Source: Escherichia coli (GTDB lineage Bacteria > Pseudomonadota > Gammaproteobacteria > Enterobacterales > Enterobacteriaceae). From it: a stretch of DNA of 64,000 nt. Positions 2,113-36,111 of the stretch are shown here, piece after piece. The stretch lies in assembly GCF_046105845.1 (NCBI RefSeq), contig NZ_CP151004.1, one strand, 5' to 3'. The position numbers were made by a program, and so were the translations under genes. The notes under the pieces were generated by a model. The model did no database searches, had not been told where the DNA came from, and worked only from the letters and a program-made list of their open reading frames with translations. Each line of letters opens with the position of its first letter. Within the stretch, counting starts at the first letter, position 1.

Positions 2113-2211
2113 GATTCCGTTAATTTCCTGAAATTACGACAACATTTAAAAGATAACAATGACCGGACTATAGCCTGGATCAAGACGCGGAAACATCATT
2201 TTCTCTGATGA

Positions 2212-2246
2212 ATGAAAACAAAAAAGCACTGCCTAAGCAGTGCTTT
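2212..2246 (-). terminator. Intrinsic terminator downstream of mepS
   Basis: Perfect 10-bp stem (aaagcactgc / gcagtgcttt, loop ctaa) followed on the reverse strand by a T-rich run (ttttttgtttt). Confidence 0.75.
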
Positions 2247-2292
2247 CAGTTAACTCGTCAGGATAGCCAAGGGATTGCATCCAAACGGTTTA

Positions 2293-2859
2293 TTAGCTGC
2301 GGCTGAGAACCCGGCGTGCTTCGTTGTAACGCTTCTTCCAGTACGGTTCATTCATGCTGGAAATAATAACACCACTGCTGGTGGAAGCATGGACAAACTG
2401 ATTGTTGCCGATATAAATACCGACATGGCGTCCTGTTGAACCGGCACGGAACAGAACTAAATCACCCGTACGCAAATTACTGCGGGAAACAGATTTACCC
2501 ATTTCCTGCTGTTCGTAAGTCGAACGCGGAAGTTCTAAGCCAAATTGCTCACGGAATGTACGCTGTACGAAACCAGAACAATCGATACCTTTTTTAGTGC
2601 TGCCGCCCAGACGATAGCGTACGCCTTTCCAGTCAGCATACTGATCCATAATTCGCGATTTTACGTCGACATTACGAACCAGGTTTTCAAATTCATCCTG
2701 AGAAGCTTGCAGTGATGATGTTTCACTACCCACTGCACGTGTCTCAGGATGCATATTCTTTGCGGTGTTATTTGCACTACATGCAGAAAGCAGAACCGCT
2801 ACTGCAATCGCGGGGATCCCGCGCAAGATATATCTCAAAATCGGTTGAGATTTGACCAT
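2293..2859 (-). CDS. mepS: Murein DD-endopeptidase / LD-carboxypeptidase, NlpC/P60 lipoprotein
   Basis: 188-aa ORF with a lipoprotein signal (…AVLLSAC) and an NlpC/P60 catalytic Cys context (…GIDCSGFV…). Confidence 0.93.
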
Positions 2860-3270
2860 GTTGTTTGTTTTCCCTTGAAGTCCTTAACGACAAATATCGT
2901 TATAAAAAAATGCCAAGCGACACGAGACTAATTACCTGGGCATGTTGAAACAATTCCTTAAGGCCAAATCTGTGGACTAACGCACAAAATTATATGCTGT
3001 GAGGATAATCTACCGCCGAGGCAAAACGAGTTCGAGATTACCCGATTGGTGCGGTCTTGGCGAGCGGTTTTACATGATTTTTTATAAGAAAAAGTGATAC
3101 AGAAAGTTAATAAACGGGATTGGTCAATTAAAGTACGATTGAGTGAAACGCATGCAATCCATTCATTTACTTAGAGAATGATTTTTGCGCGCGATGGATG
3201 AAAGCACGGTGCGCATCATCAGGATTATCCTCACTATAAAAATAACCCTGATGATGTTAATTACTGTGAG

Positions 3271-3984
3271 TTATTTGTTTTGGAAATGTTTGTTTTTTCC
3301 CGGTAGTGATTTGTCAAAAAAGGTGATTAATCGATCACTTAATGGCGTCAGCAACACCCAGGGCAAACCGATTAATATCACGGTCATCGAACCGACAATG
3401 ATGTCAGTAAACCAGTGTGCGCCAATCATTACTCTGGGAAACGCAAAAACCACAAAAATAATAAGGGCGATAAGGCCTGCAACTTTGCCGAAATAACGCC
3501 ACATGAATGCCGAAAAAATAAGCAGCATCATACCGTGATCGCCGGGAAAGCTATCTCGTGAGGCATCTTTAGTGGGAACAGAGAGCAGTTCGCTGACGCG
3601 GTTAATATCGGTAAAAGTCAATGTTGGGCTGGCCCGTTTTACAGGAATTAATGCCTGACCCAGCTGGTTTAATACCACTGCAGTTAATAGCATGACCAGA
3701 CCAATAATCACGATACGTCGTCTGCCTGGGGCGTTTTCTTTCAGCCAGAAACTCAGCATCAACATTCCCATCGCCAGCAGTGAACAACCGTCGAAAGCGC
3801 GATTGTTGGTCAATGCAACCAGCCACAAAAAGGCCTTACTTTCGACCAGTTTCTGATTAAAGAAATAAAAAATATCCGCATCAATCGGCAACCAGAATCC
3901 ATGATTAACGGGTATATACCAGGAAAGAAACAGCGCGAGGCCGACAATATTCAACAACACTATTTGCGGCAAATTTTTAATCAT
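3271..3984 (-). CDS. lpxT: Lipid A 1-diphosphate synthase (PAP2-family phosphotransferase)
   Basis: 237 aa from ATG at 3984-3982 (MIKNLPQIVLL…); the track ORF from 4020 is over-extended at the 5' end. Multi-TM with PAP2 motifs (…PGDHG…, …GAHWFTD…). Confidence 0.85.
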   Translation of the reverse strand: MIKNLPQIVLLNIVGLALFLSWYIPVNHGFWLPIDADIFYFFNQKLVESKAFLWLVALTNNRAFDGCSLLAMGMLMLSFWLKENAPGRRRIVIIGLVMLLTAVVLNQLGQALIPVKRASPTLTFTDINRVSELLSVPTKDASRDSFPGDHGMMLLIFSAFMWRYFGKVAGLIALIIFVVFAFPRVMIGAHWFTDIIVGSMTVILIGLPWVLLTPLSDRLITFFDKSLPGKNKHFQNK

Positions 3985-4022
3985 ATTTTCTCTAATTATC
4001 TTACTGAAAAACGCAGGCAACC

Positions 4023-5009
4023 TTACGCGGTAGTCGCTAAACGAAGCTTCAACAGCGCGCTCTGCAAGGCATTCCAGTCAGCTTCGCTGCTGGAAATCAG
4101 CTCAATACGACTGTCCGGTGGCGCAACGTTTTGCGTTTCAATGTGCAGGTCATCGCCCTGACGGTTGATTCGCACCAGCCCTTCGGGAATACGCATCACG
4201 CCTTTGACGCGTTCCACCGGTGCAAGTCGCGCCCATTCCAGAATGCCAATGGTGTCGAATACCGTATCAGCGTCGAATATCCAGCCACAGGCCTGATATC
4301 CTTGCCCGCTGTTCAGACTGCGACGCCAGCGTTGATGCTCTGGCAGGCTTAACGCTGCTAACCCTTTTTTCACGCCATGCTGATGAGAATGCGCGGCGCT
4401 GGCGGGCAACTCGGCTAAATTGCGACGCGGCAAATCCAGAAGATGACCGTCAACTTTCCCATGCTCACTGTGAATTAATTGTCGATCGCCACCATTTTGC
4501 TGCCACCAGCGCTGTAGCGCTTGCTCACTTTCAGGCGTCGCACGGTCGGATTTATTGGCGACAATAATGTCTGCGGCAGCCAGCTGGTCACGGAAGTTTT
4601 CATTGCTGGCGCTTTTTTCGTCCAGCAGCAGGCGTGGATCGAGAATGCACAACGTGGCGCGCAGATCTATCCACGGTTCATACACGGGCGCGGTTAAGAG
4701 ATCTAGGATCTGTTTCGGATGACCCAGTCCGGTCGGCTCTATCAACAAGCGGTCTGGTTTTCCCTGACGCAGTAAGGTATTCAATCCTACCTGCATGGGT
4801 AAACCATTAACGCAGCACATGCAGCCGCCGGGGATCTCTTTCAGCAGTGCGCCGCTATCGGCGAGCAAAGCACCATCAATTCCGACTTCCCCAAATTCAT
4901 TAACCAGTACCGCCCATTTTTCGTTGGGATCTTTATGGGCTAACAGATGAAGAATCGACGTGGTTTTCCCGCTGCCGAGAAAACCGGTGATGAGGTTGGT
5001 CCTGGTCAC
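4023..5009 (-). CDS. yeiR: COG0523 / CobW-family Zn-associated GTPase
   Basis: 328-aa ORF with N-terminal Walker A (GFLGSGKTT), a CobW-like fold and a His-rich stretch (…SAAHSHQHG…). Ends 38 bp upstream of lpxT on the same strand. Confidence 0.9.
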   Translation of the reverse strand: MTRTNLITGFLGSGKTTSILHLLAHKDPNEKWAVLVNEFGEVGIDGALLADSGALLKEIPGGCMCCVNGLPMQVGLNTLLRQGKPDRLLIEPTGLGHPKQILDLLTAPVYEPWIDLRATLCILDPRLLLDEKSASNENFRDQLAAADIIVANKSDRATPESEQALQRWWQQNGGDRQLIHSEHGKVDGHLLDLPRRNLAELPASAAHSHQHGVKKGLAALSLPEHQRWRRSLNSGQGYQACGWIFDADTVFDTIGILEWARLAPVERVKGVMRIPEGLVRINRQGDDLHIETQNVAPPDSRIELISSSEADWNALQSALLKLRLATTA

Positions 5010-13128: not shown

Positions 13129-13161
13129 TGTTACAGGGCAGAAATTTCCTGCCCTGTAACA
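13129..13161 (+). terminator. Stem-loop immediately downstream of fruA (13-bp stem, no U-tract)
   Basis: tgttacagggcag-aaatttc-ctgccctgtaaca, a perfect 13-bp stem starting 10 nt after the fruA stop; followed by only ttt. Confidence 0.5.
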
Positions 13162-36049: not shown

Positions 36050-36111
36050 TGGGTATTGCCGGATGCGTCGCATCCGGCAATCGGTGCCAAATGCCGGATG
36101 CGTCGCTGGTT
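36050..36111. repeat. REP/BIME elements downstream of mglC and preA
   Basis: gccggatgcgtcgcatccggcaa and a second partial copy atgccggatgcgtcgc. Confidence 0.75.

Follow-up and report, generated by a model that had tools for sequence, protein, structure and literature searches.

The inverted repeat located downstream of lpxT in Escherichia coli is genuine; it forms a conserved RNA structure that belongs to a known class. We concluded that it is probably the 3'-terminal stem-loop of the yeiR-lpxT mRNA, with termination occurring downstream of the stem and probably through Rho. The hairpin very likely defines the 3' end of the lpxT mRNA, and our analysis somewhat favors Rho as the factor that would terminate transcription beyond it. 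A role as a structure that stabilizes the 3' end, which was one of the functions suggested in the first-pass annotation of this DNA, is supported by covariation on the sense strand and by a published Term-seq end 3 nt past the stem. The present function of the hairpin is most likely protection of the lpxT mRNA at its 3' end, an effect that would stabilize the transcript.

The DNA analyzed (hereafter, the window) was a stretch of 64 kb in which yeiQ, yeiR, lpxT, mepS, and pdeN occur, all on the minus strand. The repeat lies in the 411-nt intergenic region between lpxT and mepS (2860-3270), and no RefSeq annotation covers the hairpin after lpxT. The features of the locus are summarized in Table 1. 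In the short spacer that separates the hairpin from the lpxT stop codon, conservation in the intergenic alignment was 0.55-0.79; the AAUUAAC motif of the spacer continues into the first base of the stem and is kept across genera.

Table 1. Positions in the window of the lpxT 3' stem-loop and neighboring features
Feature	Position	Strand	Description and basis
lpxT CDS	3271..3984	-	237 aa plus stop; ORF list and K-12 b2174 annotation, 100% protein match
lpxT stop codon	3271-3273	-	ORF list and K-12 annotation
Spacer from lpxT stop to hairpin	3257..3270	-	14 nt, CUCACAGUAAUUAA
RNA hairpin in lpxT 3' UTR	3214..3256	-	20 pairs, 4 of them G-U; inverted repeat, fold, and covariation
Hairpin 5' arm	3256->3237	-	CAUCAUCAGGGUUAUUUUUA
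Hairpin loop	3236->3234	-	UAG, 3 nt
Hairpin 3' arm	3233->3214	-	UGAGGAUAAUCCUGAUGAUG
Variable stem position	3246	-	G in window and K-12, G-U wobble with 3224; sampled-strain alignment and folds
Equivalent of Term-seq 3' end	3211	-	3 nt past last paired base, 60 nt after lpxT stop
Candidate zone of Rho loading and diffuse termination (putative)	3044..3213	-	Untranslated; C/G 1.5-3.2
mepS	2293-2859	-	ORF list; protein 100% identical to K-12 b2175

As DNA, the repeat consists of two 15-nt arms, CATCATCAGGATTAT (3214-3228) and ATAACCCTGATGATG (3242-3256), which are 13 nt apart and 93% complementary, with one mismatch. The first-pass annotation had described a 15-bp stem with one mismatch and a 13-nt loop; this is accurate for the DNA palindrome, but not for the sense RNA, in which G-U pairing yields a 20-bp stem and a 3-nt loop. 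It had also placed the element at 3222-3267, 4 bp past the lpxT stop codon. The start was 8 nt and the end 11 nt away from the actual span (3214-3256), and the gap to the stop codon is 14 nt. The repeat was detected by a local search and a dedicated scan; a whole-window repeat listing omitted it, which we took as the behavior of the tool. Three inverted repeats of equal quality (15-nt arms with no more than one mismatch) were present in the 64-kb window and none in 20 block shuffles. The other two were located at 13129-13161 and 36065-36106, the latter with a REP-like GCCGGATGCG core.

REP and BIME elements are intergenic palindromes with a shared consensus that occur in many copies per genome and may protect upstream mRNA from 3' exonucleases. 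The lpxT element is similar in being an intergenic palindrome with a possible protective effect on the upstream mRNA. However, it is a single-copy element (a median of one place per E. coli genome, with the arm motif at no other site in the window), it lacks a REP consensus of the GCCGGATG type, and it has orthologs in other genera at this one locus. Membership in a REP or MITE repeat family was rejected because the element is single-copy per genome and in the window.

The sense RNA of the minus strand (43-mer) folded into a perfect 20-bp stem with a free energy of -23.7 kcal/mol (z -7.3), and none of 200 shuffled sequences folded as well. The stem is rich in AU and GU pairs, with few G-C pairs in its lower part. 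In RNA from the opposite strand, the G-U pairs turn into A-C mismatches, and the fold reached only -14.2 kcal/mol (z -5.4). This asymmetry between the strands points away from a DNA palindrome and toward a structure of the lpxT RNA. A permissive E-value Rfam scan of 2200-4200 gave no match at the gathering score over the hairpin. Two sub-threshold hits overlapped it, one to a plant miRNA model (15.7 bits versus a threshold of 70, E = 6) and the other, on the opposite strand, to a snoRNA model (19.7 bits versus 43, E = 1.6); both are chance matches.

A search with LpxT collected 80 loci, ranging from Escherichia to Franconibacter, which together with the window made 81. According to exhaustive sub-window folding of each locus, a hairpin of -10 kcal/mol or lower directly follows the lpxT stop codon in 80 of the 81, and one of -15 kcal/mol or lower in 67. 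Of the two strands, the sense strand gave the more stable fold in 55 loci and the antisense strand in 18, as raw locus counts that ignore kinship. Many genera share a core, CAUCAGGGAUCG-UUUU-CGAUCCCUGAUG. The outer eight or nine stem pairs of Escherichia are common to Citrobacter, the inner AU/GU-rich part is lineage-specific, and the lengthening of the stem to approximately 20 bp is confined to Escherichia. In Enterobacter sichuanensis (L037), a Kosakonia sp. (L041), and an Enterobacteriaceae MAG (L075), the first in-frame stop codon was found beyond the start of the hairpin; the lpxT frame seems to enter or cross the stem in these loci, which may reflect either a real C-terminal extension or an artefact of stop location.

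Covariation was counted, ignoring kinship, on a MAFFT alignment of 68 sequences with a 14-pair structure specified by hand. Pairing was possible in 82.6% of the alignment cells, compared with 24-45% when the partner column was slid by 1-3 positions, and double-sided changes occurred in 12 of the 14 pairs (115 cells). The observed pairing or covariation score was reached in none of 500 shuffles. RNAalifold recovered only eight pairs from the same alignment.

Unrelated stem sequences occupy this place, with pairing kept, in Salmonella, C. amalonaticus, Atlantibacter, K. cowanii, and others. Replacement of the sequence with maintenance of pairing is the signature of an RNA structure, not of a protein-binding site. 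The first-pass annotation had also proposed a protein-binding palindrome in the region upstream of mepS. The element does lie upstream of this gene, and it contains a promoter-like sequence on the minus strand (TTAACA-16-TATAGT, 3260..3233, score 10/12), the TTAAC part of which is kept across genera; it might on these grounds be the DNA site of a dimeric regulator or a promoter acting on mepS. In addition to the exchange of stem sequences between genera, however, the G-U wobble pairs are valid on one strand only, and only in RNA, which speaks against recognition of a DNA palindrome. We therefore consider a regulator site or mepS promoter to be extremely unlikely.

Mapped transcription starts argue in the same direction. 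The mepS P2 start is located at -169 from the ATG, at about position 3028 of the window (Mendoza-Vargas 2009 supplement), and the P1 start 109 nt downstream of P2, at about -60 (Elgrably-Weiss 2024). The hairpin is 186-228 nt upstream of the nearest of these starts and outside the mepS leader. A promoter inside the hairpin was rejected because the -10-like TATAGT occurs in Escherichia only, the single promoter-like hit compares with a mean of 1.5 in shuffles, and the mepS starts map elsewhere.

Several other observations were made in the intergenic region and mepS. The length of the region is approximately 411-416 nt in most sampled genera (loci L004-L083). Strongly conserved blocks occur 3' of a variable spacer at 3090-3081 (TTCTTATAAA, 0.97 identity), 3040-3021, and 2990-2860; they partly cover the mepS promoters P2 and P1 and the leader, with the 3090-3081 block lying upstream of P2. 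A weak terminator-like site at 3027-3045 on the minus strand, consisting of a 5-bp stem followed by TTTTG, overlaps the P2 -10 element (GGTAATCT) and start; this site might intercept transcription continuing from lpxT, or the overlap may be coincidental. Two further Term-seq 3' ends were reported on this strand, one at MG1655 2269975 (window ~2863), which precedes the mepS start codon by 4 nt, and the other at 2270136 (window ~2702), inside mepS at codon ~53 (PMC7815308). Each was detected under at least two growth conditions and was scored by the authors as not Rho-dependent (PMC7815308).

The locus was present in 5425 of 5426 complete E. coli genomes, once per genome. In the 55 nt centered on the hairpin, 2040 genomes were identical to the window and 3253 carried one or two mismatches, and this stretch was at least 95% identical in 5293 of the 5426 genomes. 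Within E. coli, the stem hardly varies. In the five sampled strains with an allele other than that of the window (L002 and L084-L087), 3246 was the sole variable stem position, and it corresponds to the one mismatch of the first-pass annotation. O157 and three more of these strains have U at this position, and APEC O78 has C; either base gives a 1x1 mismatch. Strain 20A24 (NZ_CP147044.1) carries an IS1A insertion within the 3' arm of the hairpin, at the site equivalent to 3223-3230 of the window, with duplication of the target GGATAATC; lpxT is cut off from the hairpin in this strain, which represents a natural disruption mutant.

RNase III makes staggered cuts in duplexes of approximately 22 bp and leaves 2-nt 3' overhangs. 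The extension of the stem in Escherichia only, to 20 contiguous pairs in the K-12 allele, approaches the duplex length of ~22 bp that fits RNase III (PMC6212723), and the stem could in principle be a cleavage site that controls the processing or decay of the lpxT mRNA. If so, the mRNA would be destabilized rather than protected. However, the helix is broken by the 1x1 mismatch in all five sampled strains that differ, and one or two mismatches over 55 nt were present in the 3253 genomes noted above. Furthermore, the mapped 3' end is outside the stem at +3, and not within it with a 2-nt overhang, and neither lpxT nor mepS is mentioned in the main text of the study on RNase III targets (PMC6212723). 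Cleavage by RNase III consequently appears highly improbable. We give a similarly slight chance to the idea that stem growth in Escherichia created a switch, dependent on RNase III or another double-stranded RNA-dependent factor, which sets lpxT mRNA stability or read-through into mepS, a cell-wall endopeptidase gene. If true, it would link lipid A phosphorylation to peptidoglycan expansion.

Mapping of the transcript 3' end, named as a check in the first-pass annotation, is available for MG1655 and places the end just past the stem. Adams et al. (2021, PMC7815308, Supplementary file 1, LB 0.4) listed a Term-seq 3' end at 2269627 (NC_000913.3, plus strand; 1323 reads), with the flanking sequence ATTAACATCATCAGGG...CCTGATGATGCGC|ACCGTGCTTT. 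MG1655 coordinates were mapped via locus L001, the hairpin of which is identical to that of the window; the K-12 hairpin occupies 2269582-2269624 with the same sequence. The end was classified as "orphan" only because it is more than 50 nt from the gene end. The peak is small, and the end is absent from the LB OD 2.0 and M63 lists (PMC7815308). The hairpin itself is unannotated, but the 3' end of lpxT is already in a published table; the mepS P2 start follows about 180 nt downstream of this end.

Canonical intrinsic terminators have a stable, usually GC-rich stem of approximately 5-14 bp and a short loop followed by a U-rich tract of 7-8 nt, and they usually release RNA 7-9 nt from the stem. 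The 3' end of SgrS, for example, is the eighth U of a U-run (Adams et al. 2021, PMC7815308, Term-seq table). The lpxT hairpin of E. coli shares the position and ancestry of such terminators, but differs in the absence of a U-tract, in its AU-rich lower stem, and in a mapped 3' end that lies at +3 rather than in a U-tract ~7-9 nt from the stem. The nine nucleotides after the stem on the lpxT sense strand (CGCACCGUG) contain a single U, a search for a T-run next to the repeat on both strands found none, and a terminator scan made no call at 3214-3256. The first-pass annotation was accordingly correct in noting the lack of a U-tract and in stating that the E. coli element is not a classical intrinsic terminator, although its orthologs in some other genera are.

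In Klebsiella oxytoca, Atlantibacter hermannii, and Pseudenterobacter timonensis, the orthologous hairpin with its T-run passed the terminator scan. At least six U in the next 9 nt were also found in Raoultella, other Klebsiella, one Enterobacter cloacae, and a Lelliottia. No U-tract follows the hairpins of Escherichia, Citrobacter, and Salmonella, and three or fewer U were present in the 9 nt after the hairpin in 51 of the 81 loci. In Klebsiella, Raoultella, Atlantibacter, and Pseudenterobacter, hairpin and U-tract together form a canonical intrinsic terminator; the E. coli element is therefore orthologous to classical terminators and has lost the U-tract.

This ancestry, the high stability of the hairpin, and the 3' end adjoining it might suggest that the E. 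coli copy still acts as a weak, non-canonical intrinsic terminator, which releases RNA without Rho at or just past the stem, with the +3 end being primary or slightly nibbled. Dar and Sorek remarked that sites poor in U might in some cases be inefficient intrinsic terminators with Rho as a backup (PMC6061677). However, an RNA:DNA hybrid over CGCACCGUG would be rich in GC, the lower part of the stem is not, and the consensus scan was silent. Because of the GC-rich hybrid and an end at +3 instead of 7-9 nt, direct intrinsic termination in E. coli is unlikely.

Protective 3' stem-loops on Rho-dependent transcripts were reportedly hypothesized by Peters et al. in 2012. Dar and Sorek (2018, NAR 46:6797, PMC6061677) described E. 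coli transcripts that depend on Rho and end precisely just after stable stem-loops without a U-tract. In their account, PNPase and RNase II are stopped at these stems once termination has occurred diffusely farther downstream, and C is enriched over G downstream of the stems (PMC6061677). The lpxT element resembles this class in having a stable stem-loop without a U-rich tail directly after the CDS of a weakly expressed gene, and a precise steady-state 3' end right after the stem, the latter seen in one condition with low reads. C also exceeded G for approximately 170 nt downstream of the hairpin in sliding 78-nt counts, a mild skew that is no specific predictor of Rho loading. The lpxT stem (20 bp, AU/GU-rich) differs in being longer than is typical for the class, and its dependence on Rho and exonucleases is one that we infer from these likenesses. 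The proposal in the first-pass annotation of a Rho-dependent pause element is plausible in part: the hairpin may serve as an exonuclease barrier before diffuse Rho-dependent termination, but the members of the published class are not pause sites (PMC6061677). A literature search found no paper naming lpxT together with Rho-dependent termination or bicyclomycin, and the TERMITe tables contain no lpxT entry.

In our reading, the ancestral element was a classical intrinsic terminator, which has remained intact in some Enterobacteriaceae, and in the Escherichia lineage the U-tract disappeared and the stem grew to approximately 20 AU/GU-rich pairs. RNA polymerase would most likely pass this hairpin without stopping, probably enter the C-rich, G-poor untranslated stretch beyond it, and be released there, probably by Rho. 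The 3'-to-5' exonucleases PNPase and RNase II may then trim the transcript back to the stable stem. Such trimming would leave the transcript defined and protected at the mapped end, 3 nt beyond the last paired base.

The hairpin gives lpxT a defined 3' boundary, and lpxT and mepS are separate transcription units. The practical value of this finding is modest, and it opens no new question. The locus is also a clean illustration from nature of how a terminator hairpin at one orthologous site can be canonical and carry a U-tract in some genera of Enterobacteriaceae but lack the tract in others. Dar and Sorek proposed that terminator types could switch in evolution merely through U content (PMC6061677), and the cross-genus series of lpxT hairpins represents such a switch at a single orthologous site.
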